Origin: Candidatus Heimdallarchaeota archaeon
GTDB taxonomy: Archaea > Asgardarchaeota > Heimdallarchaeia > Heimdallarchaeales > Heimdallarchaeaceae
DNA length: 29,348 nucleotides
Assembly (NCBI GenBank): GCA_021399395.1
Contig: JAAFKJ010000134.1
Coordinates: forward strand, 1 to 29,348
Direction of reading: 5' to 3'
The notes under the pieces were generated by a model that searched no databases, was not told the DNA's origin, and worked only from the letters and a program-made list of their open reading frames with translations. A program made the position numbers and the translations under genes. Shown one piece after another: positions 7,320 to 29,348 of the stretch (positions are counted from its first letter, which is position 1; every line of letters starts with the position of its first letter).

Positions 7320-8285
7320 CTATTTTTCTTTATCAGAATTTTTTACAGCTATAATTTCAGCTGCTATACTAATAGCTATTTCTTCAGGTGTATCACTTTT
7401 TATTTTCAACCCTATGGGAGAATGTACTGAATTAAGTAAATCTTCTGAAATTCCCTTTCTTTCTAAACTTGCATAGACTTGTTGTTTTTTAAACACACTA
7501 GCCATCATACCTAAATATCTGAATCTTTTTGAAATTAATTTCTCAAGTACTAATTCATCAGAAGAATGACCATAAGTCATAATCGTTACAAATACATTTT
7601 CCCCCTCTGGCACGTAAGACAAAATGTCCTCATAAGATATAACATGTTTCTCGTGAGCGTGGGAGTTACTTTTCATTGTTGGTAATTCTGGTCTGTCATC
7701 AAGGATTGTAATGTGAAAGTTCAGTGTGTCCATTATTCTGGATAAAGCAAGAGAGACATGTCCTCCACCTATAACAATTAGTTTGTCTTGTAATCCCATG
7801 TTTTCTTTATATTCCCAACCAGAATCTGTTTCAGTGTACTGATTATTTTCTTGTAGTGGTTCTACTTTTTCGTACAGAACACCATCTCCTGTTAGTGTTA
7901 AAACTCCAGGTATAGCATCTGTGAAAGCATTCTTTATTTCTTCAATAATGGGAATTTTATGCTTATTTAGAGGAAGTAAAGCAAAAGTTTGTGACCCTGA
8001 ACATATCATTCCAGAGTGATGTTCCTGTGTTCCTTCAGAATGATCCAGAAAGACTGTTTCAATTTTAGTACTGCCCTTTAATAAGGAGTTACGAGCGTGA
8101 TTAGTTAGCCTGTGTTCAGAAATTCCTCCACCTACAGTACCAATTAATGAATCAGCTGTTATTATCATCTTAGCACCTGGTACATTTGGGGCAGAACCAA
8201 TTCTATGTATCATAATAACAAGAATTATATCCTCACCTTTTCTCAAAAAATCTAACGCTGTTTTCCAAAACTGTTCTTCGTTCAT
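7320..8285 (-). CDS. xdhC: Xanthine dehydrogenase accessory/Moco maturation factor (XdhC/CoxI family)
   Basis: GSAPNVPGAKM, GTVGGG, MICSG, IGGGHV, MTYGHSSD, SPIGL and TPEEIAISIAAEII motifs; lies directly after xdhB. Confidence 0.92.
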   Translation of the reverse strand: MNEEQFWKTALDFLRKGEDIILVIMIHRIGSAPNVPGAKMIITADSLIGTVGGGISEHRLTNHARNSLLKGSTKIETVFLDHSEGTQEHHSGMICSGSQTFALLPLNKHKIPIIEEIKNAFTDAIPGVLTLTGDGVLYEKVEPLQENNQYTETDSGWEYKENMGLQDKLIVIGGGHVSLALSRIMDTLNFHITILDDRPELPTMKSNSHAHEKHVISYEDILSYVPEGENVFVTIMTYGHSSDELVLEKLISKRFRYLGMMASVFKKQQVYASLERKGISEDLLNSVHSPIGLKIKSDTPEEIAISIAAEIIAVKNSDKEK

Positions 8286-8290
8286 TTTAG

Positions 8291-10528
8291 CTATTCCTCA
8301 TGTAAGTAAAGCAGTAATTTTTCAGGTGTAATTGGTGCTGAGTAGACCCATTCTTTGTCTTTTCTGAATGCTTGTGCAGCATCCTTTAATGCGAAGTATG
8401 CTCCGATTCCATACATAAATGGAGGTTCTCCAATTGCTTTTGATTTCAAAACCGCGTATGGATTGTCTGCGTCTTCTAGAAATTTTGTGTGAATCTTAGG
8501 TGCAAAATAAATATCTGGGACCTTGTATGTTGCAAGAGCATCAGTGAGAAGTTTTCCATCTACATACTGTAATTCTTCTAGTGTCATCCACCCCATACCT
8601 TGAACTAATCCTCCTTCTATCTGGCCAAGATCAATTAGATAATTCAAACTTTTTCCAGCGTCATGAACAATATAGACGTTATCGAAAGTATATGTTCCCC
8701 GTAGACAATCAATTGTTACTTCAGTTACAGCTGTTCCAAATACATGATAAGCAAAAGGTTTACCTTTTTCTTTTTCAGCGTCATAATGAATTCCAGGCAT
8801 GGCGAAATATGCTTGAGAGGAAAGATTTACTCTGCTCAAGTAAGCAGACATGACTAACTCTTCCCATGTCAAATTTGTCTTCTCATCATTCAGATAAACT
8901 ATCTCATCTTTTAAAGCTAAATTTCCTTCCCCCAATTTCTCTTTTGCAACATTAAGTAATCGTTCATTAATTGCTTTACAAGCTATTTCAACAGCCTTAC
9001 CATTTAAATCTGCACCACTACTAGCCGCTGTAGGAGAAGTGTTAATCACTTTACCAGTATTTGTACTTTCCATCCTAATTCTATCTGGATTAATTGAGAG
9101 AGTGCGAGCTGCAATTGACTTGATTTTAGTGTTTACTCCCTGTCCCATTTCAACTGCTCCTGAACTTATATTAACACTCCCGTCATAGTAGACATTGACT
9201 AGTGCTCCTGCTTGATTCATAAAAGTAGCAGTAAAAGAAATCCCGAAACAAATAGGCATTATAGAGAAACCCTTCTTCACCAATTTGTTCTTCTTATTGA
9301 ATTCCTCTTGCTTCTCCTTTAAATCATCAAATTTTGAATCTTGAAGAACTTCTGCAAAGCTTCTCTTAGCTTGAGTCTTTTCAACTTTCATTCCATATGG
9401 AAATTGATCTCCTTCATCGAGCAAATTTCTTTCTTGTAATTTTTCTATTGATATACCTGATTTCTCAGATGCATGAGCTAATGCACATTCTATGACAAAC
9501 ATTCCTTGAGGACCACCAAATCCTCGAAAAGCTGTAAAGGGTACTAGGTTCGTTTTACAGGAATAAGCTGTTACCCTAACATTCGGAATGTAATAAGCGT
9601 TTGTAGCATGGAATAATGTTCTTCCTAGTATTGGCGTTGAAAGATCTGCTGCAGCACCAGCATTTTGATAGAATTTAGCTGAAAATGCAAGGATTTTGCC
9701 TTCCTTATTCAAGCCTAGTTTATAGTCAGTAGAATAAGGGTGTCTTTTTCCTGTTATAGTAATATCCTCTCGTCTATCTAGTACTAATTTGACTGGTCTT
9801 CTGGTATGATAAACCCCCAATGCACAGATAGCAGCCCAGTGAGTGGCTTGATCTTCCTTCCCGCCAAAAGCACCTCCCAATCGTTTAACATCAACCTCTA
9901 TTTTGTTCATGTCACAACCAATAACATTGGAAACGATATTCTGAACAGTTGAAGGATTTTGGGTGCTGGAATAGAGTAAGATTCTACCCTCTTCCCCTGG
10001 AATAGCAAGACAACCTTGTGTTTCCATATAGATGTGCTCTTGACCTCCGGATTCAGCTACGCCTTCGACAATAGTCTCACATTTATCCCAAATGGAATCA
10101 ATGTCTCCTAAAGATAATGTTCTAGAAGGAGCAATTAACATCCCTTTCTTTGCTGCTTCTCTAGGATCGAAAACAGCTGGAAGGGGTTCGTATTCTATAG
10201 TGATTAAATCTCTAGCCGTGTTAGCTTGATTTTTTGTCTCTGCGAAAACAACAGCTATAGGTTGTCCAATGAAATCTACTTTATCCTTAGCTAATAACTC
10301 TTCATCTTGGATAATTCGGCCTACTTCATTCTCACCTGGAATGTCTTCAGCTGTTATTATTTTAACTACTCCCTCACTTGCTTTTGCTTTTTGCATATTT
10401 AACTTGATAATCTTTCCATGAGGTATGTTTGAAATAAAGACTGCAGTATGAAGCATGTCTTTTGGTTCAGGAATATCATCAACAAAAACTGATTCACCTG
10501 TCGTGTGAGGAGGGATCAAATCGGTCAT
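8291..10528 (-). CDS. xdhB: Xanthine dehydrogenase molybdopterin-binding subunit
   Basis: GGQEHIYME, STQNP, LGGAFGGKE, RTLFH, AFRGFGGPQG, GISFT, VEMGQG, SPTAASSGADLNG and SKAIGEPP motifs of xanthine oxidoreductases. Confidence 0.95.
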   Translation of the reverse strand: MTDLIPPHTTGESVFVDDIPEPKDMLHTAVFISNIPHGKIIKLNMQKAKASEGVVKIITAEDIPGENEVGRIIQDEELLAKDKVDFIGQPIAVVFAETKNQANTARDLITIEYEPLPAVFDPREAAKKGMLIAPSRTLSLGDIDSIWDKCETIVEGVAESGGQEHIYMETQGCLAIPGEEGRILLYSSTQNPSTVQNIVSNVIGCDMNKIEVDVKRLGGAFGGKEDQATHWAAICALGVYHTRRPVKLVLDRREDITITGKRHPYSTDYKLGLNKEGKILAFSAKFYQNAGAAADLSTPILGRTLFHATNAYYIPNVRVTAYSCKTNLVPFTAFRGFGGPQGMFVIECALAHASEKSGISIEKLQERNLLDEGDQFPYGMKVEKTQAKRSFAEVLQDSKFDDLKEKQEEFNKKNKLVKKGFSIMPICFGISFTATFMNQAGALVNVYYDGSVNISSGAVEMGQGVNTKIKSIAARTLSINPDRIRMESTNTGKVINTSPTAASSGADLNGKAVEIACKAINERLLNVAKEKLGEGNLALKDEIVYLNDEKTNLTWEELVMSAYLSRVNLSSQAYFAMPGIHYDAEKEKGKPFAYHVFGTAVTEVTIDCLRGTYTFDNVYIVHDAGKSLNYLIDLGQIEGGLVQGMGWMTLEELQYVDGKLLTDALATYKVPDIYFAPKIHTKFLEDADNPYAVLKSKAIGEPPFMYGIGAYFALKDAAQAFRKDKEWVYSAPITPEKLLLYLHEE

Positions 10529-11886
10529 AGCAAATCCTCCAGTTCAGGAACTAGTTTCACAAAATGAGCATAAATCAGCTGCCTTAGAAGTAAACGTTTG
10601 TATCTAGCTGTTCCCCTAACATCATCAATTGGGCTGATTTCTGAGTCCGCTATTCTGGCTGCTTCTTTGACTACATCAGCTGTTATCTCTTTATCCTCGA
10701 GATATTGACATGTTTTCTCTAAATACATCGGTATCGGTCCAATACCTCCACCTGAGAGATGTGGTTCTGTTATTTTATTATCTTTATATTTCATTGAAAA
10801 TGCACTATTCACACTAGCAATATCCATGTGCATTCTCTTGGCAACTTTTTCAAAGGATAAAATCCTCTTCTCATTTTTGATTCTAAACCATTCCAATATT
10901 TCCCCATCCTCTAGATCTAGAATCTTGTATCCTTTGAACAAATCTTTCAGTTTGATAATTCTCCTCTCTTCTCCCAACAATAGACCAATGTCTGCATCCA
11001 ACGCAAGGAAGTATATAGTAAGATCTCCAATTGGAGATGCATTAACAACATTTCCTCCTATAGTAGCTTGTTGTCTGATGGGAAGGGAAGATACATTTGA
11101 AAGATGACTAGCTGTGTCAAATAAAGTGTTAAGCTCGTTGGAAATACGAATGGATTCTATATCCGCAGCGGCTCCAACAAAAATGTAATTATCATCTGAC
11201 CAGATTTTATCAAAACCGAGTTCAGATAAGAAGACAGGATCTTGAATGACTATGTTTCGATGAACAAATAAGTCGGTCCCTCCAGCAATATAGGTTCCTT
11301 TTTTCAATTTTGGCTGGATTTGAATTTTCTTCAGCATTTCTGGAATCTCGAGAAAGTATGACGGTAAATACTCTGCACTAACAAGTGCGGAAATTCTTCC
11401 TTTGGAATAATCTAAAGTTGCTATCTTCCTATTTGCAGAATCAGCTGCTCGGAGAATAGATTTATAACCAGTACATCTGCAGATGTTCCCCTCAATAGCT
11501 GTAATGATATCTGTGTTTATTAGATTCTCATTCATGAAGTAGGCCATTAGAGCAACTACAAAACCAGGAGTACAGAAACCGCATTGAGAACCACCTTCAT
11601 CAACTATTGCTTGCTGAACAGGATTTAGTTTCTCTAGATTTAACCCTTCAATCGTCACGACATGTTTCCCTGTTATTTTCCCTAATGGAAGCATGCATGA
11701 ATTAATTGCTTTGTAGATAACCTTATCGTCCTTGAGTTCTCCAACTAGAACCATGCAAGCTCCACAATCGCCTTCATGACACCCCTCTTTTACTCCTTTG
11801 ATCCCATTTTTTCTTAAAAAATCAAGTGTATGCAAACTAGGTGATTCATTAGTTTCCATTATTTCTCGATTGAGTATGAATTTCAT
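10525..11886 (-). CDS. xdhA: Xanthine dehydrogenase small subunit (2x[2Fe-2S] + FAD)
   Basis: KEGCHEGDCGAC, QCGFCTPG, GNICRCTGY, AGGTDL, ATIGGNVVNASPIGD and SPIDDVRGTA motifs; ATGA overlaps with both neighbours. Confidence 0.95.
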   Translation of the reverse strand: MKFILNREIMETNESPSLHTLDFLRKNGIKGVKEGCHEGDCGACMVLVGELKDDKVIYKAINSCMLPLGKITGKHVVTIEGLNLEKLNPVQQAIVDEGGSQCGFCTPGFVVALMAYFMNENLINTDIITAIEGNICRCTGYKSILRAADSANRKIATLDYSKGRISALVSAEYLPSYFLEIPEMLKKIQIQPKLKKGTYIAGGTDLFVHRNIVIQDPVFLSELGFDKIWSDDNYIFVGAAADIESIRISNELNTLFDTASHLSNVSSLPIRQQATIGGNVVNASPIGDLTIYFLALDADIGLLLGEERRIIKLKDLFKGYKILDLEDGEILEWFRIKNEKRILSFEKVAKRMHMDIASVNSAFSMKYKDNKITEPHLSGGGIGPIPMYLEKTCQYLEDKEITADVVKEAARIADSEISPIDDVRGTARYKRLLLRQLIYAHFVKLVPELEDLL

Positions 11887-13097
11887 TCTTCAAACCTTTT
11901 GATGACTTCTTGAATTGTGAATGTTGTTTTACTAATCGCCCCTTTAACTGCATTTACATCTTTAAGGCCATTTCCAGTAATAACTAGACAAACAGTATCT
12001 GTTTTAGTAATTTTCTCTTCGTAAATAAGTTTTTTCAGTCCTCCATATGGAACAGCACCTGCTGGTTCTGCAAAGATTCCAGTGATTTTTCCTAGATCTT
12101 TAATCGCATCAATAATCTCTTCATCTGTAAGAGAAATGTAATATCCACCACTTGCTTCAACATAAGTACATGCCTTTATGACATCTCTGGGTTTCCCCAC
12201 AGATATGCTATCTGCTACAGTGCTTCCATCAATTGAAATAGGTTTGTAAGGTTTACCTTTGTCAAAAACTTCCTTGATTGCAGGAATACCTGCAGCTTGA
12301 ACACCTATTATTTTAGGAATTTTATCTGTTAGTCCTATCTCTTTAAACTCCCAGAAACCTTTGTAAAGAGAACTAACAACAGTTCCATCTCCAACCCCAA
12401 TAAGAACATAATCTGGCACATTGAAGTCGTTTTGAATAATAATTTCAAATGCTCCTGTCTTCTTACCTTCTAGAAGGTACGGATTAATTGCAGCATGTCT
12501 ACAATACCAACCCTTCTTTAAACCAAGTTCTAGAGAGAAATCGTAGACTTCATCATAAGTTCCTTCAACAGCATACACTTCTGCACCAGAAATTTCAAGT
12601 TGAGTCCTTTTACCATCAGGAATTGCAGCAGGAACGAAAATATATGTTTCCATGTCAGTATGAGCGTTAAGCATAGCTAAAGATGAAGCAGCATTCCCAG
12701 TTGACGCACAGAACAGAATGTCATTCCCCTCATCAAGAGCTTTATTTATAGCAATAGAGCTAGCACGATCTTTGTAAGAACTAGAAGGATTAGAACCATC
12801 ATATTTTATGAGAACATCCTTAATACCAAACAGATCGAATTTATACAAAGGCGTACCACCTACATAGTCATCGAGTTTCAGTTTTGATTTAGTAGGTAGC
12901 AAGAAATCAAATTGATACATTGAAGCCTTCTTATCAAACTTTTTCTCCTTTAAAGCTGCATCATTTTTGATTGATTCATAATCATAGACTACTTCTAAAG
13001 TTCCCATTATTTTTCCACAGTCTTCACAGTAATAGAGACCTGGTTGGGGTTCAAATTCCTTTTTACAAGTTATACATCTTAATATGTAATTATTCAT
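11883..13097 (-). CDS. thrC: Threonine synthase-like fold-type II PLP enzyme (substrate uncertain)
   Basis: N-terminal CxxC...CxxC, NPSSSYKDR (PLP lysine), ASTGNA, GVGDGT, FAEPAGA and ITGNGLKD. The family is clear; the function may differ from threonine synthesis. Confidence 0.75.
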   Translation of the reverse strand: MNNYILRCITCKKEFEPQPGLYYCEDCGKIMGTLEVVYDYESIKNDAALKEKKFDKKASMYQFDFLLPTKSKLKLDDYVGGTPLYKFDLFGIKDVLIKYDGSNPSSSYKDRASSIAINKALDEGNDILFCASTGNAASSLAMLNAHTDMETYIFVPAAIPDGKRTQLEISGAEVYAVEGTYDEVYDFSLELGLKKGWYCRHAAINPYLLEGKKTGAFEIIIQNDFNVPDYVLIGVGDGTVVSSLYKGFWEFKEIGLTDKIPKIIGVQAAGIPAIKEVFDKGKPYKPISIDGSTVADSISVGKPRDVIKACTYVEASGGYYISLTDEEIIDAIKDLGKITGIFAEPAGAVPYGGLKKLIYEEKITKTDTVCLVITGNGLKDVNAVKGAISKTTFTIQEVIKRFEE

Positions 13098-14173
13098 CTA
13101 AGCACTCCATAAATTGCATCTACAGGACAACGAGATTCACACAATCCGCAGTGTATGCATTTCTCTTTATCCACAACAATATTTTCTTCAGCTGCTGAAA
13201 GAGCTCTAGCAGGACAGATTTTAACACAGAGCATACACATGGTACATTTTTCATTGAAAGAAGGATGATTATCAACAGCAGTATCTATGGCTTTGAACAA
13301 GGTAGTTTTTCTAACTTGTCTAATTTCCTCAATTGATGCGAAGCCGTACTTCTCAAGTGCTTTTGGGAGATCTTTAACTATCTTATCATACAATCCTCTT
13401 CCTCTAATCAATGCAGAGGAGAGCATTTGAACAAGATCAGCACCAGCGAGGATAAATTCTAAAACATCCTCAGCTTTTCCAATTCCTCCCACACCAATTA
13501 TAGGTATGTCAGGAAAAGCTTTTCTTATATTGTAAATCCTGTGAAGAGCTATTGGTTTAATTGCTGGACCACTCATCCAAATTTGTTCAGCTAGAAGTAC
13601 TGAACGTGCTTCTAGATCAATAGCTGTTCCTGGACCGAGAGAGTTAATGGCAACAATTCCAGTAGCACCAGCATCAATGACGGTTTTTACAAAACCAAGA
13701 AAATCATCGATATGGGGGCTAAGTTTCATGAAGATAGGCTTGTCAGTGATTTCTCTAATACTTCTGACTATTCCAGGAAGAAGATCCTCAGAAACATAAT
13801 GGGTAGATATTTCAAACATGTCTGCAAAAGGATCAAGTTTTGGGATGAGATATCTGAAATCTTCCTCTTTGTAACCTGCACTAATAACTATGAGTTTCTT
13901 TTTCTCTTTATGAATTGCTGGAAGGATCTCATTTATCCATTCATCTGAATGCAATTCAGACCAAAGCTCACAATTGTAAATGGTATTAGTAGTTCCAGCA
14001 ATGCAAGGTTTAGGAACAATAGCTCCTTCTACTGAAATTGTTTTGGCTACATTGTAACCACATAAATTGTCATTGAAAAACTGCATATTTTCTAGACCTT
14101 CAACGATAGGTCCAGCAGCAGGTCCGAGGGGATTTTCAAAATGCAAACCCAGAATATTAACTGACAAGTCCAT
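13094..14173 (-). CDS. Dihydroorotate/dihydropyrimidine dehydrogenase (PreA-like) FMN barrel with C-terminal 2x[4Fe-4S] ferredoxin domain
   Basis: NPLGPAAGP, AKTI, MKLSP, AINS, SGPAIKPIAL, IIGVGGI, GADLVQ; CTMCMLCVKICP and CIHCGLCESRCP. The active-site loop reads EISTHY rather than N-x-S-C-P. Confidence 0.85.
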   Translation of the reverse strand: MDLSVNILGLHFENPLGPAAGPIVEGLENMQFFNDNLCGYNVAKTISVEGAIVPKPCIAGTTNTIYNCELWSELHSDEWINEILPAIHKEKKKLIVISAGYKEEDFRYLIPKLDPFADMFEISTHYVSEDLLPGIVRSIREITDKPIFMKLSPHIDDFLGFVKTVIDAGATGIVAINSLGPGTAIDLEARSVLLAEQIWMSGPAIKPIALHRIYNIRKAFPDIPIIGVGGIGKAEDVLEFILAGADLVQMLSSALIRGRGLYDKIVKDLPKALEKYGFASIEEIRQVRKTTLFKAIDTAVDNHPSFNEKCTMCMLCVKICPARALSAAEENIVVDKEKCIHCGLCESRCPVDAIYGVLR

Positions 14174-15466: not shown

Positions 15467-15581
15467 GGTTTTACTACGCTTTACTTTCATATGAATTTTG
15501 TCTTTTTGGTGGTTAATGGAAATTGTTAATTGAGGTAATTTTGAACTAAAGGGGAAATTTTTTTATTTCCAATTACTATAG

Positions 15582-15617
15582 TACACGATTCGATAATTTT
15601 CGTGTAAATATACACGA
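15582..15617. promoter_or_regulatory. Triple alternating heptamer (TACACGA / TCGTGTA / TACACGA) forming overlapping inverted repeats; candidate operator
   Basis: TACACGA at 15582-15588, TCGTGTA at 15600-15606 and TACACGA at 15611-15617, in the divergent intergenic region. Confidence 0.45.
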
Positions 15618-15648
15618 GATAATTGAATAATCAAAATAGGTTATTATT

Positions 15649-20123: not shown

Positions 20124-20160
20124 GGATTAGTTAAGTAGTTCTTTCTTTTTTTTTGTTTTT
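20124..20160 (+). terminator. Hairpin GGATTA-GTTAAG-TAGTTC (two G-U pairs) with long T-tract
   Basis: Degenerate member of the GAACTAG hairpin family directly after the stop, followed by TTTCTTTTTTTTTGTTTTT. Confidence 0.55.
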
Positions 20161-20262: not shown

Positions 20263-20304
20263 AATAGTAAAAATAAATTAAAATGAACTAGTCAATACTT
20301 GTTC
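20257..20304 (+). pseudogene. Empty gene unit: family-like start (MKNSKNKLK*) joined directly to the family-like end AAC-TAG and hairpin
   Basis: ATG 20257 sits at the same place in the leader as in the intact paralog. GAACTAGT-CAAT-ACTTGTTC at 20285-20304 is followed by a pyrimidine tract. Confidence 0.6.
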
Positions 20305-20420
20305 CTTTCCCTTTTCTTCTTGATAGATTAGAAAAATTAATATTATACTATTGATGCGAAAAAGATTATATTAATGCGAATGTTTGAATTAACTAAGAGT
20401 ATTAAATATGTTTGGAGTAG

Positions 20421-21290: not shown

Positions 21291-21371
21291 TTTGCCTTTC
21301 CTCTTCATCCTTATTACAACCATAATAAACTGAGTATAAAAGAAAAAGGAGAAAAAATAAAACTATAAGTT

Positions 21372-23177
21372 TTACTTCTTCCTTTTGATTATATAACTAA
21401 TTGAAATAATTGAGATAATACTCAAACTAACTAACAAAATACTCGTTTGCTGATATTCAGGTATCACAGCAATTACTGTAACGATTATGGTGCTAGCAAT
21501 GGAATTACCTGCGATATCAAAGAAAACAGTTGTATAGTTATGTACTCCTGCATCTAATCCATCAACATTCAAATTAATTATGTCAAAGCTTCTCCAAACT
21601 GCAGTTCTAAAAATTGAACCATTGAGCATCTGTTGGTAAAACCTTGGATATTGTTCAGATGCTTGCCAATAAATAGTGTTCCCTGTTTCACCTTCAGTAT
21701 AATCTAGGTCAACAGCTTTTACTACAATAACAGGACTAGTTGTATCAACTATTACATATGGGTCAACTGAGCCTGCAGAACCTTCTATAACATAATCTCC
21801 AGAACCAGAATAATCAGAATAATAATTACCAGTTAGAGTACTTTCATCAAACCATGTATTATTGAATCCTTCATCTAGAGCTTCAGAAATACCTCCAGGA
21901 TTGTTATTCAAGAAGAAATTATTGTGTATAGTGTTATTATTACATCCTGAATCAAAGTTTATGCCATAAAATCCAGAAGGACTGTTTTCAAAGATGTTGT
22001 ATGCGATTGTAGTTAAATCAAATGAATGAAACCTTAATCCTTGTCCTGAATTGCTTATTGTATTATTGTACACATTACCGACTGCATTGCTTTGATATCT
22101 GATACCATATTCTGAGTTATTTTCTATGGTGTTGTTGAAACAAGTAATATTGGGTGAATTAACTGCTATTACTCCAAAACTACTATCATGCAAGTAACAA
22201 TTGCGTATAATTGTATGCGCACTCGTACTGACATCAATTGCGCCATAAGGACTTACAAATCCCACCTCACAATCTTCAATAAGAGTGTTCCTACCTATTA
22301 CTCTGATTCCATATAAATAATTGTTGAGGCATGTATTGTTGAATAGATTTAATCCGTTAACTTCTACAGATATTATTGATGTAGCTGTATTCCCAATTAC
22401 TTGATCTCTTACGGTAACGTTATCCCCATCACCTATGATTATTTGGCCATAGATATTATCAGAAATTACTAAATCTTGAGGGTTAACAAAAAAGCCCAAT
22501 GGTTTTCCATTGACATAATTGTTTGTAACTACATGATTCTGGAACCAAGCACCATTTGTATAAATATTAAAACCTGTATCGATACAAGTGTTATTCTCAA
22601 TTATTGCAGATTGAGCATTTGCTAGATAGACTTGTTCACTACCAATGAAAGTGTTATTAATAATTTTCATTCCATCACTGAAGTAAATTCTAGCAGAATA
22701 CTGGCCACAATTTTGTATAGTATTATTGACAACTTCGAGATCATCCAGATTATTGATGTATATTCCGTGATTTGTATTTACGAGTGTATTGTTCTCAATT
22801 TGAACTTGACCCGCAACTGGACCTTCAATATTAATTGCATATTGTTCTGCATCAATGTAACAATCTTCAATGGTAAAATATGATGAAACACCTGAAATTT
22901 GAATCCCATAAGAGTTTGAGGTTTCTATTTTCAATTCTTCTATTTTGTACGGATCTCCATTTATGCCAGAACCTGAGAAACCTAGATTAGTGAAATCAAT
23001 TTCTTCATTTATCAATATTGGACCACTAATTGTGTAGTTCAAATCATCAATATTTCCACTTTCAAGGTCTGTTATTGCTTGAATCTGGAAACTAGCATTA
23101 AGGTTAAAACTTAGACTCAAAATTATACTCAAAGATATAAGAGTAAAAACTATATGTGTGCGTTTATTCATTAGCAT
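21372..23177 (-). CDS. Surface protein with right-handed parallel beta-helix (NosD/PbH1) repeats, Ig-like domain and PEF-CTERM-like anchor
   Basis: Signal peptide, GSGINGDPYKIE, many I-x-NN-T-I repeats, GNYYSDYSG, VIPEYQQ + TM + KRKK. Confidence 0.85.
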   Translation of the reverse strand: MLMNKRTHIVFTLISLSIILSLSFNLNASFQIQAITDLESGNIDDLNYTISGPILINEEIDFTNLGFSGSGINGDPYKIEELKIETSNSYGIQISGVSSYFTIEDCYIDAEQYAINIEGPVAGQVQIENNTLVNTNHGIYINNLDDLEVVNNTIQNCGQYSARIYFSDGMKIINNTFIGSEQVYLANAQSAIIENNTCIDTGFNIYTNGAWFQNHVVTNNYVNGKPLGFFVNPQDLVISDNIYGQIIIGDGDNVTVRDQVIGNTATSIISVEVNGLNLFNNTCLNNYLYGIRVIGRNTLIEDCEVGFVSPYGAIDVSTSAHTIIRNCYLHDSSFGVIAVNSPNITCFNNTIENNSEYGIRYQSNAVGNVYNNTISNSGQGLRFHSFDLTTIAYNIFENSPSGFYGINFDSGCNNNTIHNNFFLNNNPGGISEALDEGFNNTWFDESTLTGNYYSDYSGSGDYVIEGSAGSVDPYVIVDTTSPVIVVKAVDLDYTEGETGNTIYWQASEQYPRFYQQMLNGSIFRTAVWRSFDIINLNVDGLDAGVHNYTTVFFDIAGNSIASTIIVTVIAVIPEYQQTSILLVSLSIISIISISYIIKRKK

Positions 23178-23327
23178 CTCACTTTTGTTTATTGTATTAA
23201 TATTGAAAACATATCGATAAATGTAGTTTATAATTGTTTTGCATTATTTTTTCAAAGTTTGATGTTCTAATCTATTTGTCATCATGATACTGAAAATGAT
23301 ATATATTGGATTTGTATTTGAAGAACC

Positions 23328-24377
23328 ATGAAAACTGTTCAGCTAATTGAAATTAACCAAGATTTAGAGGACAGAGAAATACCAACCCCAATACCAATAT
23401 CGGATGAAGTGCTGATTAGAATCAGGGCTGCAGGTATATGTCATTCTGATGTACATTATCGTGATGGTGTCTCATCAGGTGTCTCATCAGGTGTCTCATC
23501 AGTTGGTTATCTTCCAATCGCTTTAGGACATGAGGTAGCAGGGGAGATAATAGAACTAGGTTCTGAAGTTACCGATTTCCAAATTGGAGATAGAGTTTGT
23601 CTCAATTATATGATTACCTGCGGTAAATGTAAATACTGTGTGCAGGGAACTGAACAATTCTGTGTTAAAGGTAAAATGATAGGTAAGGATATAGATGGAG
23701 GGTATGCTGAATATATCGCTGTACCAACTAGAGGTGTTTTCAAGTTGCCAGATTCAGTTTCTTATGAACATGCTGCAGTTATGATGTGCTCTTCCTCAAC
23801 CTCACTTCATGCTCTCAAAAAGACTAGATTCAGACCAGGAGAAACTATTGCAATATTTGGTTTAGGCGGATTGGGAATATCAGCATTACAGCTGGCCAAA
23901 GTTTTTGGTGCAGGAACAATTTATGCTGTTGATATTGATTCGAATAAACTTGAAGCTGCTAAAGAAATGGGTGCCATACCTATTAATGCTAAAACGAATG
24001 ATCCAGTTGAAAGAATTATGGAACACACTGAAGGAGACGGAGTAGATGTGGCTCTGGAACTTATAGGTCTTCCAGTAACAATGGATCAAGGAGTGAGATC
24101 ACTTGCAAGATTTGGACGTTTAGGGTTAGTTGGAATAACTGCTAATTCATTTGATGTCAACTCATACGAAACAATTTGTAGAGAAAAAGAGATTATAGGA
24201 GTGTCTGACCATCTATTGTCTGAATTACCTTTCCTACTAGATTTAGCTAAACTAGGAAAATTAGATTTGAGCAAAGTTGTAACAAAAACAGTTCCTCTTG
24301 AAGCTGAAGCTATTAACGAAATTCATCACCAACTTAAAGAGTATAAAGCAGATTTTAGAACTGTAATTGTTCCTTAA
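23328..24377 (+). CDS. Zn-dependent alcohol dehydrogenase (MDR family)
   Basis: GICHSD, GHEVAG, CGKCKYC...C structural Zn site, FGLGGLG Rossmann motif, AVDID. Confidence 0.93.
   Translation: MKTVQLIEINQDLEDREIPTPIPISDEVLIRIRAAGICHSDVHYRDGVSSGVSSGVSSVGYLPIALGHEVAGEIIELGSEVTDFQIGDRVCLNYMITCGKCKYCVQGTEQFCVKGKMIGKDIDGGYAEYIAVPTRGVFKLPDSVSYEHAAVMMCSSSTSLHALKKTRFRPGETIAIFGLGGLGISALQLAKVFGAGTIYAVDIDSNKLEAAKEMGAIPINAKTNDPVERIMEHTEGDGVDVALELIGLPVTMDQGVRSLARFGRLGLVGITANSFDVNSYETICREKEIIGVSDHLLSELPFLLDLAKLGKLDLSKVVTKTVPLEAEAINEIHHQLKEYKADFRTVIVP
23466..23501 (+). repeat. Perfect 12-bp tandem repeat (GGTGTCTCATCA)x3 encoding GVSS x3
   Basis: Read directly: copies start at 23466, 23478 and 23490. Confidence 0.95.
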
Positions 24378-24381
24378 TTGG

Positions 24382-25161
24382 TTACGTCTGAAACTTTGCT
24401 TTTATTTTTGTTTTAAAGTCAGTATCTTTAGTAAATCTATAGTGCATATACATTAAGAAACCACCAACAATGAAAGTTGGAACCAGAACAAAGAGCGACC
24501 ATGTTACAGTTACTTTCCCTTGAATTGTGCTCATTATGATTAAATCAAGACCAAGGTTTAGAATTCCAACTGCAAATAAGATAAAGGCGGCAATATTCAT
24601 ACCTTTGTTTTTCACCTTAATCGATGGTACAACAACTGCTACAGATAGTACTAAAACTAATGCAATTATAGGTAGAGCTAGTGTATGTATCCAGTCAAAC
24701 ATCCAATTGTCGAAGTAATCTACTAGGACTAAGAAACTGATTAGAGCAACTGCGATACCTACAATCATGATTACTGGTCTCTTGGTGAAAAGTAGAGGAA
24801 ATGTACATAGCATCCATGCTAACATAAGAGCTATCATTGGAAATCTTGCCCAGCTGATTGTTGCATTGATTATTAAATCTGTAAATGTAACGATTAGAAA
24901 AGGGGTCAACATTGAAGCAGTAATAACCTCCCATGCCTTGAAACGTTTTTCTTTTGGTGTTAACTTTCTTCTAGATGGATGTTCGATCTCCTTATCTGGA
25001 TATAGTTTACCATTTACTTGCTGATCAGTTCTATCAGGATACTTTCTTTTACTTGGTTTTTCAACAGTTTCATCAGGAAACTGTTGAATTGGTAGAGAGC
25101 ATAAGGGACATTCTTTAACATCGTCGTCCACTTCAACTCCACATTTGCTACAATAGGGCAT
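24382..25161 (-). CDS. Membrane protein with N-terminal zinc ribbon and about 6 TM helices (DUF6320-like)
   Basis: MPYCSKCGV...CPLC followed by six hydrophobic segments. ATG 25161 is likelier than GTG 25170; the gene is adjacent to the acyltransferase. Confidence 0.75.
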   Translation of the reverse strand: MPYCSKCGVEVDDDVKECPLCSLPIQQFPDETVEKPSKRKYPDRTDQQVNGKLYPDKEIEHPSRRKLTPKEKRFKAWEVITASMLTPFLIVTFTDLIINATISWARFPMIALMLAWMLCTFPLLFTKRPVIMIVGIAVALISFLVLVDYFDNWMFDWIHTLALPIIALVLVLSVAVVVPSIKVKNKGMNIAAFILFAVGILNLGLDLIIMSTIQGKVTVTWSLFVLVPTFIVGGFLMYMHYRFTKDTDFKTKIKAKFQT

Positions 25162-25172
25162 GTTTTTCACTT

Positions 25173-26504
25173 CTAGTTGGTTTCAATTTTCACAGAAATA
25201 CCGAGTTTTTTAAGTTTTCGAAAGAAATTTCTTTCAACAATAGGATCAGCAATTACTCTGCCAAAGTTGAGATATAGTTTATCCTTAAAACTTACCATTG
25301 CACAGCTAGCTTTGTTTGAAGGACTGGGTGCAGGTAAGAATTCAAATGATTCAACTTCATTACTAAATGCTTCTGGTAGTACTACTCTTCCCAGATTTGT
25401 TATTGTACCTGAATAGAGTTTTTCACCCATTCGAGAATATAGTACTATCCCTCCAACTCTTTTGATGAATAGGGGTGTGCCCCTCATTAAAGGATGGAGT
25501 TCTCCCCTAACATTTCTACTTATCTGTTGACTGATATATCTATCATTGACTTCGACTCTCATGTAATGATGAACTGTCTCCAATATCTCATCAAAGGAGA
25601 AGTGCCCCAATCGCGGGTCAATTCCTGGAGTGACAAATAAGCTGAAGTTTCGCATAGTCTTAGTTGGAAAGAAACGTCTAAGGTTGACAGGTATCATTAT
25701 TCTAATAGGCTTAGCTAATTTTTTCTGCATTTTTTCAGGAAGATCGTAGAAGATTTTCTGTAAGGAATCGATGTATACTGCGCTTAGAAATTCAGTTAAA
25801 GTGACATTGAGTTCTTTTGACTTAGCTAGAATCTCTTTGATATCTATAATCCCCGTTGTCATGTGAAAGATACCTGTCTTTTCCAACTTATGTGGGATTT
25901 GAAAGGCTACTTCTAATAACTTGGGTTTTGGGTACATAGGATTATAGAACCTTTTGAAAGCATCTTCGTATTCTTCATCGTGAGGTTGCTGACCAAAATG
26001 GTAGACCTCTCCCCAATCATCTGTTTTAATACCTTTTTGAGTCAAATATTCTGCAACAAGTGCTTTTAGAAAAGTTATCGCTCCTGTTCCATCAGTTAAA
26101 GCATGATAAAACTCTACAGCTATTCTATTCTGGAAAGCTCTGACTCTAAATGGAAAAATACCTTTTTTTCTCATGGGCATTTCTTGACTTGTATATTTTG
26201 AATCAGCCATAACTTTAGGTTTACCTAAATTTGTTTCCCAGTAAAACCAGAAAAATCCGGGTCTCTGATTAACTCTATAATAAGGGAATCGTCCAATGAT
26301 CCTATCAAGGGCTCTTTGAAGAACATTAACATTGATTGGTTCTTTTAAAGTTGCAGCCATACGAAAAAGACATGTTATACGTTCATTACAAACAAAACTA
26401 AAGAGAACAGCTGCATTATCCATACGATAAGAACGAATTTTGTTCTTCTCTTCCTGAGTTAAAGCAGCGGGATGCTCAATAGATTTTGTTTTAATGTTAT
26501 TCAA
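25173..26504 (-). CDS. Alcohol acetyltransferase-like CoA-dependent acyltransferase (CAT/condensation fold)
   Basis: HxxxDG motif (FYHALTDGTG), DNAA, GFFWFY, IPVNLRRFFPTKTMRNFS, TNLG. Confidence 0.8.
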   Translation of the reverse strand: MNNIKTKSIEHPAALTQEEKNKIRSYRMDNAAVLFSFVCNERITCLFRMAATLKEPINVNVLQRALDRIIGRFPYYRVNQRPGFFWFYWETNLGKPKVMADSKYTSQEMPMRKKGIFPFRVRAFQNRIAVEFYHALTDGTGAITFLKALVAEYLTQKGIKTDDWGEVYHFGQQPHDEEYEDAFKRFYNPMYPKPKLLEVAFQIPHKLEKTGIFHMTTGIIDIKEILAKSKELNVTLTEFLSAVYIDSLQKIFYDLPEKMQKKLAKPIRIMIPVNLRRFFPTKTMRNFSLFVTPGIDPRLGHFSFDEILETVHHYMRVEVNDRYISQQISRNVRGELHPLMRGTPLFIKRVGGIVLYSRMGEKLYSGTITNLGRVVLPEAFSNEVESFEFLPAPSPSNKASCAMVSFKDKLYLNFGRVIADPIVERNFFRKLKKLGISVKIETN

Positions 26505-26588: not shown

Positions 26589-27905
26589 CTACTTTCTTGG
26601 AATAAATTGACCTTCCTTTTTACCAACAAGTTCTCTATTTTCAACAAGTAAGTTTCCTCTCAAAATGGTAGATTCGACTAAACCTTTTATTATCATTCCT
26701 TCATAAGGACTATAGTCAGATTGAGAATGACCCGAATCTATTTTAAATTCCTTTTCAGGATTAAAAATAACAAGATCAGCATCTGAACCCTCTTGAATAA
26801 TTCCCTTTTTGGGGAAGAGATTATGGATAACAGCTGGATTAATAGTATATTTTGGAATTATCTGTTCTCCAAATAGGTTGTACATTAGGGAAAAGCTATA
26901 TTCAAGCCCTCCAAGACCTTTAGGAACTTTACTTGCAGCAATATAACGCTGTTTTTCCTCTCTTCTAAAAGGTGCATGGTCTGTCCCGACAGTGTTTATA
27001 ATAGCTATATTTTTCCTTAATTTTTCTTGCTCATCTGTTGAACGGAGAGGTGGAGCTAGAAGGAATAAGTTTCCATTATCTGTTTCATAAACATCTTTGC
27101 TGAGATTGAAATATTGGGGACAACTTTCAACAAAGATATTATTTTGCAAAAGATCAGGATATTTCTCTTTGAGTAGTTCGATAGATGAACCACAAGTAAC
27201 ATGAACAATGTAAATTCTACCTTTGAGTTCTGAAACAATTTCAGCTAATTTATCGATTTCTTCTATTTCTGCATTAGCAGGCCTTGAGCTTTCATATATA
27301 GCTATTTGGTCTTCTACGTTTGAATTTAGTATGATTTCATCATTTTCAGCATGGATAAGTATAAGACTGCCAGTTAAATTTGAATTTTCAATGAATTCCC
27401 TTATCTTCTCATAAGAGCATCTACGATTTGATTCAGAGTAAGTTGTGAATAGTTTGATAGATGGAATGCCATTTTCAAGTGACAGTTTTACTAATTTATC
27501 TACATCATCTTTGAAATTCCCGACTGTTGTATGAAAGCTATAATCGATGAAAGAAGTTTCTGCTTCTTTCTGTTTCTGTTGAAGTTTTTCATGAAACTCT
27601 TCTACCTTATTTATAGGTTCTAAGAAATCAATGAATGTTGTGATTCCACCAAAAGCAGCTGCTTTTGAAGCACTTTCATAATCATCACTTGTTTTAAATT
27701 CACCCAAATCTAGATTGATATGAACATGTGGATCTATAAATCCGGGCATAACTAGTTTTCCTGAGCAATCTACAGTTTTTTTGCAACTTAATTTCTTATC
27801 AGGAGAAACTATTTCTGCAATTTTCTCTTTCTTAACGTAAACATCTAAAGGAGTGAAATGTCCATTACGATATGTTTTTCCATTTATCAAACCAAGGTCA
27901 TACAT
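26589..27905 (-). CDS. Cyclic amidohydrolase (dihydropyrimidinase/hydantoinase/allantoinase-like)
   Basis: PGFIDPHVH, AAAFGGITT, SIKLF (candidate carboxy-Lys), HAEN, YIVHV, ESCPQY, PPLR, GTDHAPF, GSDADLVIF, SDYSPYEG. Confidence 0.88.
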   Translation of the reverse strand: MYDLGLINGKTYRNGHFTPLDVYVKKEKIAEIVSPDKKLSCKKTVDCSGKLVMPGFIDPHVHINLDLGEFKTSDDYESASKAAAFGGITTFIDFLEPINKVEEFHEKLQQKQKEAETSFIDYSFHTTVGNFKDDVDKLVKLSLENGIPSIKLFTTYSESNRRCSYEKIREFIENSNLTGSLILIHAENDEIILNSNVEDQIAIYESSRPANAEIEEIDKLAEIVSELKGRIYIVHVTCGSSIELLKEKYPDLLQNNIFVESCPQYFNLSKDVYETDNGNLFLLAPPLRSTDEQEKLRKNIAIINTVGTDHAPFRREEKQRYIAASKVPKGLGGLEYSFSLMYNLFGEQIIPKYTINPAVIHNLFPKKGIIQEGSDADLVIFNPEKEFKIDSGHSQSDYSPYEGMIIKGLVESTILRGNLLVENRELVGKKEGQFIPRK

Positions 27906-28040: not shown

Positions 28041-28118
28041 AAAAGATTTATAAAGAAAAATTTCTACTGACAAATCTACATGTTTAATATGTAAATTTAC
28101 ATTATAATGATAAAGGAG
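28041..28118 (+). promoter_or_regulatory. BRE/TATA (TTTATAAA 28047-28054), perfect palindrome ATGTAAATTTACAT (28089-28102) and SD AAGGAG (28113-28118)
   Basis: All three elements read directly upstream of ATG 28126. Confidence 0.55.
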
Positions 28119-28125: not shown

Positions 28126-29079
28126 ATGCGAAGTTTTAAAGGAAGAGATATAATCTCATTAAAAGATTTTGAACGTCACGAATTCGAGCGTATATTTGAA
28201 GTTGCAAGAAAACTGGAACCTATAGCTCGTAACAGGAAAAATGTTGATTTATTGAAAGAGAAAACCATGGTTACAGCTTTTTACCAGCCTTCAACTAGGA
28301 CTCGATTAGCTCACGAATCAGCCATGCTTAGATTGGGTGGTAAAGTGACAGGATTTGCTGACGCTAAAATGACTCGTGCTGGTGATTTTTATATGGAATC
28401 CATCAAGGATACTTTCAAAATGCTTGAAAATTATGGGGATGTCATTGTTATGAGACATTTCATGAAAGGTGCTCCTCAGGAAGCAGCAAAATGGGTCAGT
28501 ATTCCAATTATTAATGGTGGTGACGGGTGGGGAGAACATCCTACCCAGATCTTAACTGATCTCTATACAATCCTTCGAGAAAAAGGTCACATTGACGGTT
28601 TAAAATGGGTGGCAGTAGGAGATATGAGAATGCGAACTATGCACTCTCTTGGTCATGCTTTAACTCAATTTGACTGTCCAATTACTTTTGTTGCGCCAAA
28701 AGATATGTCGATGCCTGAAGAATATAAAGAAGATTTCAGACGCAACAGCTTAAACTTTACTGAAGCTGATGATGTTCGTGATGTTATCGCAGATGCTGAT
28801 GTCATTCTAGTAGAACCTGTAGTCCAACCAGATTATACAAAATCTCGTGATGAAAGAGATGGTGAAGTTGCTCAAACTCCACCTGAGTTCAAGATAACAA
28901 AAGAATTGCTTGAAACTAAAGCAAAATCTGATGCAGTACTATTACACTCTCTACCTCGTATGGATGAAATCCCACCAGATGTAGATCAAACCCGATGGGC
29001 TAGATACTGGCAAGAAGGATTTTATGGTGTAGTAATGAGGATGGCTCTTATAGCCTTGGTTTTAGGTGCAGAGGAGTAG
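28126..29079 (+). CDS. Aspartate/ornithine carbamoyltransferase family protein (ATCase-like, non-canonical acceptor site)
   Basis: STRTR, VMRH, NGGDG..EHPTQ, VGD..MRTMHS and LHSLPR are present; the ATCase SS-x-x-KGE and TR-x-Q-x-ER motifs are absent. Confidence 0.88.
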   Translation: MRSFKGRDIISLKDFERHEFERIFEVARKLEPIARNRKNVDLLKEKTMVTAFYQPSTRTRLAHESAMLRLGGKVTGFADAKMTRAGDFYMESIKDTFKMLENYGDVIVMRHFMKGAPQEAAKWVSIPIINGGDGWGEHPTQILTDLYTILREKGHIDGLKWVAVGDMRMRTMHSLGHALTQFDCPITFVAPKDMSMPEEYKEDFRRNSLNFTEADDVRDVIADADVILVEPVVQPDYTKSRDERDGEVAQTPPEFKITKELLETKAKSDAVLLHSLPRMDEIPPDVDQTRWARYWQEGFYGVVMRMALIALVLGAEE

Positions 29080-29088
29080 GTGTAATCT

Positions 29089-29348
29089 ATGCAATCTGAC
29101 TTACGCGGTCGTGATTTAATCGGTGACCTAGATTTTACAAAAGAAGAAGTAGATACTATCCTGGATGTAGCTTGGGATCTCAAGAAAAGAAGAGCCTTAG
29201 GTGAGCGACATGCTTTACTTCTGGATAAAACTCTCTGTATGCTTTTCTTCTTCTCCAGCACACGAACCCGTGCTTCTTTTGAGTCAGGAATGGCTCAGCT
29301 GGGAGGACAAGCCACATTTTTGGAGAGTCGTACAACTCAGGTTTCTCA
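29089..29348 (+). CDS. Second carbamoyltransferase (OTCase-like), 3'-truncated; not in the ORF track
   Basis: Translates as MQSDLRGRDLIGDLDFTKEEVDTILDVAWDLKKRRALGERHALLLDKTLCMLFFFSSTRTRASFESGMAQLGGQATFLESRTTQVS; STRTR motif; SD-like GGAG/AGGTG upstream. Confidence 0.88.
   Translation, partial: MQSDLRGRDLIGDLDFTKEEVDTILDVAWDLKKRRALGERHALLLDKTLCMLFFFSSTRTRASFESGMAQLGGQATFLESRTTQVS

Follow-up and report, generated by a model that had tools for sequence, protein, structure and literature searches.

The window analysed here is contig C41 (JAAFKJ010000134.1), complete at 29,348 bp and with a G+C content of about 33%. It belongs to a 2.8-Mb genome (201 contigs, 81.8% complete) of a Candidatus Heimdallarchaeota archaeon of the family Heimdallarchaeaceae and carries two blocks of genes whose putative part in the reductive degradation of purines and urate is the subject of this text. 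We mapped the genes by combining a listing of open reading frames (ORFs) with Pfam and NCBIfam profile scans of the window proteins, and curated family cut-offs were used to decide on membership. The first block is a six-gene operon on the minus strand. It begins with an SsnA-like amidohydrolase (14174-15490; NF005540 349.5 bits versus a cut-off of 444, TIGR03314 320.4 versus 455.5), followed by a UacX/PreA-like reductase of 359 aa (13094-14173; PF01180 127 bits and a C-terminal 2x[4Fe-4S] part matching Fer4 families), a ThrC-like fold-II pyridoxal phosphate (PLP) enzyme with an N-terminal four-cysteine motif (11883-13097; PF00291 202 bits, TIGR00260 184.5 versus 167.1), the small subunit XdhA with its 2Fe-2S and flavin adenine dinucleotide (FAD) parts (10525-11886; Fer2, Fer2_2, FAD_binding_5 and CO_deh_flav_C, TIGR02963 321.5 bits versus 467), the molybdopterin subunit XdhB (8291-10528; TIGR02965 800.4 bits versus 849.5) and, as the last gene, xdhC (7320-8285; PF13478 and PF02625, TIGR02964 123.5 bits versus 161.6), which is of the type of molybdenum-cofactor insertion chaperones. 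The six genes abut or overlap by 4 nt, with a single gap of 5 nt, and the divergent intergenic region upstream of ssnA (15491-15648), which was read directly and presumably holds the promoter, contains the palindrome TGTATATTTACA. The second block comprises a hydantoinase/dihydropyrimidinase-like gene, the HyuA counterpart (26589-27905, minus strand; TIGR02033 301.2 bits versus 393.25), and on the plus strand an aspartate carbamoyltransferase (ATCase)-like gene, here called atcl (28126-29079; TIGR00670 258.5 bits versus 236.95), and the 5' 86 codons of a YgeW-like carbamoyltransferase gene, ct2 (29089-29348; PF02729 positions 1-80), which runs off the window end. An earlier note on this DNA had named these genes as one cluster over 7320-29348; all of them are present at the coordinates given here, and the single 22-kb cluster resolves into two blocks with unrelated genes between them (15649-26504).

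The second block can be followed past the window end. The 3' end of C41 is the reverse complement of contig C1 over exactly 80 nt, and C1 and contig C84 share an exact overlap of 83 nt; the three contigs were analysed as separate pieces and not merged. C1 contains the remainder of ct2, two unrelated genes and a carbamate kinase gene, ck (L006:701-1717; TIGR00746 384.5 bits, above the cut-off of 358.25). At the end of C84, about 6 kb past the window end, lie a MocA-like gene and a gene for an 877-aa fused 2Fe-2S/molybdenum-cofactor hydroxylase (TIGR03311 877.7 bits, above 830). Since a low-GC metagenome contig (L122) shows the same order of hydantoinase, atcl, ct2, carbamate kinase and molybdenum hydroxylase, the chain C41-C1-C84 is supported. 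A further gene of relevance, encoding a CysK-like PLP enzyme, is divided between the ends of contigs C118 and C162. At the other end of the window, positions 1-25 match one end of contig C179 exactly, an overlap too short for a trusted join.

To search for paralogues, the window proteins were compared by local BLAST with all ORFs of the genome, followed by NCBIfam scans. Canonical copies lie on other contigs: pyrB (346.7 bits) with an adjacent pyrI, a pyrC-pyrK-pyrD operon (pyrD 328 bits), argF (425.8 bits) and thrC (PRK08197, 543 bits), besides one further ThrC-like gene. The window copies are 24-35% identical to these counterparts. Because the higher-scoring canonical pyrB, pyrC, pyrD, argF and thrC are located elsewhere, the window genes are not the sole biosynthetic copies; those bearing thrC, pyr or arg names are extra paralogues and not housekeeping copies. 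This bears on the reading that the locus holds ordinary thrC, pyrD, pyrC, pyrB and argF paralogues beside a stand-alone xanthine dehydrogenase that makes antioxidant urate. Such a reading would agree with the public names 'threonine synthase' and 'aspartate carbamoyltransferase', with the passing of TIGR00260 and TIGR00670 by ThrC-like and Atcl, with xdhC-xdhA-xdhB standing alone in all three sister-family loci described below, and with the treatment of Heimdallarchaeia Xdh as an antioxidant-urate producer in the text of bioRxiv 10.1101/2025.02.26.640444. The far higher scores of the canonical copies, the loss of key substrate-site residues, the missing pyrI and pyrK partners, the translational packing with ssnA and xdh and the co-occurrence with YgeY, YgfK and carbamate kinase across phyla speak against it; it is already largely refuted, and we regard it as very improbable.

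The ThrC-like protein is 27% identical to the canonical ThrC of the same genome. It keeps the PLP lysine motif S-[FY]-K-D-R and the CASTGN motif and passes the threonine synthase cut-off despite an alteration in a third motif: the NS.NPYR.EGQKT motif of solved threonine synthases reads AAINPYLLEGKKT here, so that NS.NPYR becomes AAINPYL. Every one of the 15 ThrC-like family members has A203 and L208, while the solved enzymes and the genome's own ThrC keep the arginine. We take the serine and arginine of NS.NPYR to hold the phosphate of O-phosphohomoserine, as in the structure of the Thermus thermophilus enzyme, a role for which a literature check gave no confirmation. The enzyme that would be expected at this place in the canonical pathway, the fold-II ammonia-lyase DpaL (YgeX), reaches at best 47.6 bits in the window genome (TIGR03528, cut-off 532). 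It was over the cut-off in none of five genomes that carry the ThrC-like gene, among them the complete genome of Candidatus Heimdallarchaeum endolithica (the E. coli positive control scored), and in none of the 16 ThrC-like-positive genomes tested overall.

We compared the distribution of both enzymes in 200 genomes drawn evenly from Clostridia, the class to which an Acidaminobacter genome belongs (one additional genome received no score), calling DpaL at E<=1e-80 and ThrC-like at E<=1e-90. YgeY was found in 16 genomes, DpaL in 24 and ThrC-like in 7, and no genome contained both DpaL and ThrC-like. Among the 16 YgeY-positive genomes, ten had DpaL only and six ThrC-like only, with none having both or neither, and in most of them no more than a few kb separate YgeY from the DpaL or ThrC-like gene. 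The CysK-like gene accompanies ThrC-like in 7 of 7 positive genomes of the draw and occurs in one DpaL genome; the two PLP enzymes travel as a pair.

About ten Thermotogota loci contain the UacX-like and ThrC-like pair alone. The idea that these form a separate two-gene unit was rejected: all five of these genomes that were examined encode YgeY and an SsnA-like protein elsewhere, and DpaL was found in none of the five. In six Thermotogota loci (L077, L078, L079, L083, L084 and L091) a KDD-type gene stands directly upstream of the UacX-like and ThrC-like genes; the N-terminal half of its product passes the L-erythro-3,5-diaminohexanoate dehydrogenase model (270 bits versus 200, scanned in L091), which hints at a link to diamino-acid metabolism. 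A different neighbour precedes the ThrC-like gene in the Bacillota and Fusobacteriota loci L089, L093, L096, L103, L104 and L106, namely a 466-aa TRZ/ATZ amidohydrolase that scores higher on deoxyadenosine-deaminase and 8-oxoguanine-deaminase models than on SsnA; these loci have no UacX or YgfK nearby, and BMP-family binding proteins are encoded upstream.

The arrangement of the first block is conserved among close relatives. ThrC-like relatives at 72-90% identity are named Heimdallarchaeota or Heimdallarchaeaceae, one of them from the H. endolithica genome, and 19 of the 24 congeneric genomes encode SsnA-like proteins at 80-92% identity. Among 16 genomes from three other families of the order, SsnA-like matches reach just 30-33% and are found in four. 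The six-gene operon is present in all five congeners fetched, and in the four whose contig extends far enough the hydantoinase, atcl, ct2 and ck genes lie 10-18 kb from it with variable genes between. In two congeners, G013 (L027) and G014 (L034:2729-3661), uacX and the ThrC-like gene are separated by an additional gene of about 1.1 kb; it is annotated in G014 only, as an opposite-strand radical-SAM gene, and was taken as an insertion. In H. endolithica (L040) a single contiguous run holds a TIGR03311-type hydroxylase, YgeY (630 bits), a YgeW-like transferase, a 487-aa CysK-like protein, the hydantoinase, ssnA, uacX, the ThrC-like gene, xdhA, xdhB and xdhC. Typical of the bacterial loci is a Peptostreptococcaceae metagenome-assembled genome (L041) with the order YgeY, transferase, CysK-like, hydantoinase, SsnA-like, UacX-like, ThrC-like and FAD, 2Fe-2S and molybdenum subunits.

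For a broader view we surveyed 80 loci around ThrC-like relatives, with 1,030 ORFs clustered locally; six loci are from Heimdall archaea and the others from Bacillota, Thermotogota, Spirochaetota, Bipolaricaulota, Atribacterota and Fusobacteriota, and many of the loci end at contig ends. The neighbours found were UacX-like proteins (39 loci), YgeY (33, over the cut-off where scanned), molybdenum subunits (33), 2Fe-2S subunits (33), SsnA-like (30), YgeW-like (30), hydantoinase (28), CysK-like (26), carbamate kinase (13), YgfK (8; 1355 bits), CDA-type deaminases (7) and adenine deaminases (5), with a homologue of E. coli YgeX (DpaL) in two. That H. endolithica and many bacterial loci have these families side by side makes their grouping more than chance.

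The neighbourhoods also bear on the possibility that the same enzyme logic acts on a different N-heterocycle (another oxopurine, a pyrimidine of the uracil or orotate type, or a pterin), so that SsnA-, UacX- and ThrC-like proteins would mark a sister pathway. UacX is a homologue of the uracil reductase PydA and the hydantoinase one of dihydropyrimidinase, the SsnA-like protein stays under both SsnA cut-offs at 31% identity to E. coli SsnA, and DpaL is absent, with PLP enzymes from other subfamilies in its stead. On the other side, ThrC-like clusters contain true YgeY (550-640 bits) and, in eight loci, true YgfK; their neighbours include adenine deaminases, a CDA-type deaminase and xanthine-type molybdenum enzymes; XdhB retains the xanthine-binding residues, and ThrC-like occupies the place of DpaL next to YgeY. 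On balance we consider a different heterocycle unlikely.

Three enzymes would reduce and open the rings. The UacX-like protein stays below both the PyrD (171 versus 269 bits) and the PreA (128 versus 335 bits) cut-offs. It combines a DHO_dh flavin mononucleotide domain with two 4Fe-4S motifs, lacks an FAD/NAD (nicotinamide adenine dinucleotide) domain and is encoded beside the SsnA-like protein, an architecture that fits the account of C. difficile UacX given in PMC12507026. Its gene is directly upstream of the ThrC-like gene in 39 of the 80 surveyed loci. For the SsnA-like protein, the SsnA models are the best although below cut-off, and the next family follows at 138 bits, more than 200 bits lower; its gene abuts the UacX-like gene, a pairing that recurs in Heimdall and bacterial loci. 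The hydantoinase-like protein, whose best family is TIGR02033, is 30% identical to E. coli HyuA versus 24% to the genome's own PyrC, and its gene immediately precedes ssnA both in H. endolithica and in bacterial clusters.

Among the molybdenum enzymes, XdhB has its best solved relatives in human xanthine oxidoreductase (XOR; 561 bits), bovine XOR (554 bits) and Rhodobacter capsulatus XdhB (523 bits), and it is identical to human XOR at all six positions checked (E803, R881, F915, F1010, T1011 and E1262), which we take to be the catalytic glutamate and the substrate-site glutamate, arginine, two phenylalanines and threonine. On these grounds, XdhB looks like a true xanthine dehydrogenase. XdhA and XdhB fall below the cut-offs of TIGR02963 and TIGR02965. 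The nearest relatives of XdhB outside Heimdall archaea (58-62% identity) are from Acidobacteriota, Aminicenantes, Spirochaetes and similar groups and not from Bacillota. A search of 83 genomes of the class located XdhB in 24 of the family's 30 genomes and, at 50-54% identity, in 7 of the 12 from a sister family; none of 40 others had it. In the three sister-family loci (L216, L217 and L218), xdhC-xdhA-xdhB stand alone, with no other pathway gene in 11.7-19.9 kb; hence, the operon appears to have arisen when an imported block became joined to a resident xdh. The window genome also contains an adenine deaminase.

Atcl passes the PyrB model, has no adjoining pyrI and coexists with the canonical pyrBI on another contig. 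Aligned to E. coli PyrB it keeps S52, T53, R54, T55, R105, H134, Q137, R167, L267, P268 and R269, while K84 is changed to Y, R229 to P and Q231 to T, with a five-residue insert in that loop. The three substitutions recur in all five family members compared (the window protein and four bacterial ones); the genome's own PyrB keeps R229 and Q231. We take K84, R229 and Q231 to belong to the aspartate site of E. coli PyrB and the kept residues other than R167 to form the carbamoyl-phosphate site. The C1 part of Ct2 (266 aa) is 40% identical to E. coli YgeW versus 27% to the genome's ArgF, and scores about equally on the acetylornithine carbamoyltransferase (AOTCase; 221 bits), ornithine carbamoyltransferase (OTCase; 204 bits) and YgeW (193.5 bits) models, all below their cut-offs. 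On the YgeW models it reaches 189 bits versus 500 (TIGR03316) and 193.5 versus 453 (NF005538), where its full-length relatives in L040 and L041 score 170-200 bits. The carbamate kinase is 50% identical to E. coli YqeA.

These three genes form a block in bacteria as well. We surveyed 80 metagenome loci around atcl relatives, 43 of which are at least 6 kb long. Of the latter, 38 have ct2 directly after atcl, 37 encode a carbamate kinase and 10 a more remote ThrC-like protein (37-41% identity). A Heimdall-like G+C content was seen in only two of the loci; the others range from 46 to 73%. Relatives of Atcl at 79-82% identity are named Anaerolineae or Chloroflexota, and contigs of bacterial appearance carry relatives at 86-92%. 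On the metagenome contig L193, the Atcl, Ct2 and Ck proteins are 91, 91 and 91% identical to those of the window genome (DNA 80-81%), whereas the proteins flanking the block reach just 24-47%, which argues that atcl-ct2-ck moved between domains recently. Bacterial neighbours of the block are amidohydrolases, a HyuA-like protein, two adenine deaminases, a GntR regulator, a Bmp/PnrA-type ABC transporter, a ThrC-like gene and the FAD subunit of a molybdenum dehydrogenase; its bacterial setting is purine-catabolic.

Atcl and YgeY are mutually exclusive in the archaeal family. YgeY reaches at best 131.9 bits (TIGR03526, cut-off 321.5) in the 81.8%-complete window genome. Of 31 genomes of this family, 8 have YgeY over the cut-off and 14 others have Atcl, and the 20 SsnA-positive genomes of the genus divide into 13 with Atcl only, three with YgeY only, four with neither and none with both. 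This exclusion bears on the alternative that the window contains two unrelated systems, a purine-directed ssnA-xdh operon and, merely nearby, a separate ATP-yielding catabolism of ureido or carbamoyl compounds (pyrimidine, oxalurate or citrulline/agmatine type). The 11 kb of unrelated genes between the blocks, the near-equal scores of Ct2 on the OTCase, AOTCase and YgeW models and the different origin of atcl-ct2-ck, with its 91% identity to a bacterial block, from the hydantoinase-ssnA-uacX-thrC-like genes would fit such a separation. Yet in H. endolithica and in bacteria the hydantoinase and a YgeW-like transferase form an unbroken run with ssnA, the bacterial atcl-ct2-ck genes lie beside adenine deaminases, a HyuA-like gene, a ThrC-like gene and molybdenum-dehydrogenase subunits, a separate argF exists in the genome, and Atcl and YgeY exclude each other among the SsnA-positive genomes. 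We thus hold two independent systems to be quite unlikely.

The origin of the ThrC-like gene was followed in a tree of 81 ThrC-like and ThrC sequences (quick search with the Shimodaira-Hasegawa-like approximate likelihood ratio test, SH-aLRT, and no bootstrap). The seven Heimdall ThrC-like rows form one clade (SH-aLRT 99) that is nested in a Bacillota clade (100) and sister to L041 (93), and the genome's own ThrC proteins are on very long branches from them. The tree therefore points to one transfer from Bacillota-like bacteria. The best reading of these sequence relationships is that the system was assembled from at least three horizontally acquired pieces.

Taken together, the window probably encodes most of a horizontally assembled pathway of the 2,8-dioxopurine type by which this member of the Heimdallarchaeaceae would degrade purines and urate reductively and without oxygen, with all its steps read from homology and gene context. 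The chemistry follows PMC12507026 and bioRxiv 10.1101/2025.04.24.650524 as far as the text of these papers sets it out; the two disagree over which ureido group YgeW cleaves. XdhAB, matured by XdhC, would oxidise hypoxanthine and xanthine to urate, from which the TIGR03311-type molybdenum hydroxylase would remove the C6 oxygen to give 2,8-dioxopurine. The UacX-like Fe-S flavoenzyme would then reduce the dioxopurine ring with electrons from ferredoxin, the SsnA-like enzyme would open the pyrimidine ring of the reduced product to yield ureidomethylhydantoin, and the hydantoinase would convert this to 2,3-diureidopropionate. Ct2 and Atcl are predicted to phosphorolyse the two ureido groups, with Atcl acting in place of hydrolysis by YgeY, and carbamate kinase would use the carbamoyl phosphate to form ATP, raising the yield from one per purine to as many as two. 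Finally, ThrC-like and CysK-like may convert the C3 diamino acid (diaminopropionate) to pyruvate and ammonia, replacing DpaL/YgeX. A further-reaching view, which we put forward only tentatively, is that Heimdallarchaeaceae ferment purines, reducing the urate ring with reduced ferredoxin so that purines act as electron sink and energy source at two ATP per purine, with Xdh feeding catabolism and not antioxidant urate. It would involve three enzyme functions that appear undescribed: an ATCase paralogue phosphorolysing ureido-aminopropionate instead of the hydrolase YgeY, and a ThrC-derived and a CysK-derived PLP enzyme that jointly take over from diaminopropionate ammonia-lyase.

On this basis the interpretation in the earlier note is supported, with some corrections. 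It had assigned every step to a protein different from the known one, which applies to the reductase, the PLP enzyme and Atcl, whereas the SsnA-like, hydantoinase, YgeW-like and carbamate kinase proteins are each homologous to their known counterparts. The replacement of YgfK by the PreA-like protein is supported but not new, having been published as C. difficile UacX (PMC12507026), and the proposed substitution of DpaL by ThrC-like is borne out by the mutual exclusion among YgeY-positive genomes, with CysK-like involved as a second PLP enzyme. For the second carbamoyltransferase in place of YgeY, the exclusion within the family agrees, but the exchange is not one-for-one (genome G004, below). 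The supposed archaeal variant has an archaeal host and is otherwise a bacterial variant acquired by transfer, as the ThrC-like tree and the 91% identical module indicate. The note was right that annotation hides the system, since public records say threonine synthase and aspartate carbamoyltransferase. As for the follow-ups it had suggested, the neighbourhood is conserved in five of five congeners, contiguously in H. endolithica and in many bacteria, carbamate kinase was found just past the window end on C1, and separate pyrB, pyrC, pyrD, thrC and argF with much higher family scores lie on other contigs. YgeY is below cut-off in the window genome, while YgeY and YgfK occur in related clusters of other genomes; the purine permease it had looked to did not turn up in the incomplete genome.

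A number of observations weigh against the proposed purine pathway. The SsnA-like, hydantoinase, XdhA, XdhB and YgeW-like proteins all stay under their NCBIfam cut-offs, and identities to the characterised E. coli enzymes amount to only 30-50%; because of these scores and identities, the substrate could be a related heterocycle. The assignment of 2,8-dioxopurine formation to the second hydroxylase is a guess, made because the TIGR03311-type enzyme sits beside YgeY in H. endolithica, and TIGR03311 is named as a selenium-dependent family while selD reaches at best 62 bits versus 125 in the incomplete window genome, in which YqeC also had no match and the only YqeB match was XdhC-like. A purine permease of the NCS2 family (PF00860) did not turn up in the genome, which is 81.8% complete. 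Contigs other than the window carry the CysK-like gene, and as it is paired with ThrC-like, either of the two or both may substitute for DpaL. As the sampled genomes are related, independent replacements of DpaL by ThrC-like are fewer than the counts, and the exclusion between Atcl and YgeY likewise represents few independent events. The genus genome G004 has YgeY together with two OTCase/YgeW-like transferases, and the replacement of YgeY by Atcl is therefore not one-for-one. A search of sequencing runs for the stretch returned six DNA runs (two studies, sediment and cold-seep metagenomes) and no RNA run. Finally, the two pathway blocks of the window are about 11 kb apart with unrelated genes between; since the pathway genes of H. 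endolithica are contiguous, this gap is secondary.

When compared to the canonical E. coli system, the window genome shares homologues of SsnA (31%), HyuA (30%), YgeW (40%) and YqeA (50%), molybdenum hydroxylases and the same clustering logic. It differs in having a UacX-type protein for YgfK, ThrC-like and CysK-like for YgeX/DpaL, an ATCase-like protein for YgeY and a xanthine dehydrogenase of the R. capsulatus/eukaryote type instead of XdhD-YgfM, in that neither selD nor yqeB nor yqeC was found in the incomplete window genome, and in its archaeal host. With the C. difficile UacX/UacY variant it shares an FAD-less Fe-S reductase of the DHO_dh family beside SsnA, presumably fed by ferredoxin; according to the description in PMC12507026, that variant keeps YgeX and YgeY and has the hydrolase UacY in place of YgeW and carbamate kinase, whereas the window system tends the opposite way, towards more phosphorolysis, with two transferases and the kinase. 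ThrC-like resembles threonine synthases (2ZSJ, 6CGQ and 1UIM) in its fold-II PLP nature, the lysine and CASTGN motifs and the passing of TIGR00260, but lacks the serine and arginine of NS.NPYR, is on a very long branch and stands in a purine-catabolism context. Likewise, Atcl has the fold, the carbamoyl-phosphate site and R167 of PyrB (Pyrococcus abyssi 1ML4, E. coli 1D09), but K84, R229 and Q231 are changed, PyrI is missing and the gene belongs to a fixed block that also encodes the YgeW-like transferase and carbamate kinase. The arginine deiminase pathway, with catabolic OTCase and carbamate kinase, is similar in deriving ATP from ureido phosphorolysis and then carbamate kinase; the window system has no arginine deiminase context, two different transferases and purine-related neighbours. 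Compared to R. capsulatus XdhAB and eukaryotic XOR (best solved matches human and bovine XOR and 1JRO), domain order and catalytic and substrate-site residues are the same, while the window xdh is translationally packed with ring-reducing and ring-opening enzymes.

The exchange of YgfK for UacX and an F420 variant in Chloroflexota are already published (PMC12507026). The neighbourhood analysis described in that paper counted any PF00291 protein as YgeX and any PF00185 protein as YgeW, so that the ThrC-like and Atcl exchanges would stay hidden. The main texts of both pathway papers do not contain 'archaea', 'threonine', 'cysteine synthase', 'aspartate carbamoyltransferase' or 'Thermotog', although their supplements may show such clusters. 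Our literature searches found no paper joining 'Heimdallarchaeota' with 'xanthine dehydrogenase', and no description of a ThrC-like enzyme in searches that combined threonine synthase with ssnA, ygeY or diaminopropionate. An archaeon as host, the pair of PLP enzymes and the use of two carbamoyltransferases appear to be new.

It was not until 2025 that the reductive urate pathway was elucidated, in bacteria alone, and the locus would add an Asgard lineage of marine-sediment type. It offers two testable non-orthologous displacements that are widespread in bacteria too, ThrC-like and CysK-like for DpaL and Atcl for YgeY, the latter of which would double the ATP yield. Surveys that rely on the seven canonical proteins or on the SsnA cut-off would miss genomes with this variant, and the naming of ThrC-like and Atcl as threonine synthase and aspartate carbamoyltransferase in public records amounts to a systematic misannotation. 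The locus also touches the aerotolerance argument on the archaeal ancestor of eukaryotes. The text of bioRxiv 10.1101/2025.02.26.640444 treats Heimdallarchaeia Xdh as a source of antioxidant urate, whereas the xdh genes of Heimdallarchaeaceae sit in a catabolic operon; if the proposed pathway is true, the xanthine dehydrogenase of these close relatives of eukaryotes would serve catabolism and not the supply of antioxidant urate.

The genes at 15649-26504, between the two blocks, encode a 579-aa protein of unknown kind, a TATA-box-binding protein, a lipoprotein-like protein, an aldo-keto reductase, a beta-helix protein, a zinc alcohol dehydrogenase, a DUF6320 protein and an acyltransferase-like protein, with no visible link to the pathway. 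The 579-aa protein (15649-17388) and the 491-aa lipoprotein-like protein (18645-20120) are mutually related, the latter having weak PDIAV-lipoprotein and beta-propeller matches; in the congener G001 (L029:8000-18000), they form a tandem array of several paralogues between the two pathway blocks. The gene for the TATA-box-binding protein (17612-18187, minus strand; PF00352 178 bits) is retained in G001 at 95% identity. The palindrome TGTAWATTTACA is found upstream of ssnA (15603-15614) and 25-36 nt before the atcl start (28090-28101), which are two of its three sites genome-wide, a count to be read with the fact that the palindrome was derived from the two upstream regions in which it was then counted. 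As a shared operator of the ssnA operon and atcl it was rejected, as 11 related loci show no conservation of it at the corresponding places. At the other end of the window, two large plus-strand ORFs (72-3071, 999 aa, and 3223-6870, 1215 aa) have zero Pfam and NCBIfam matches and are followed by a 115-aa ORF (6943-7290) near the end of the xdh operon.

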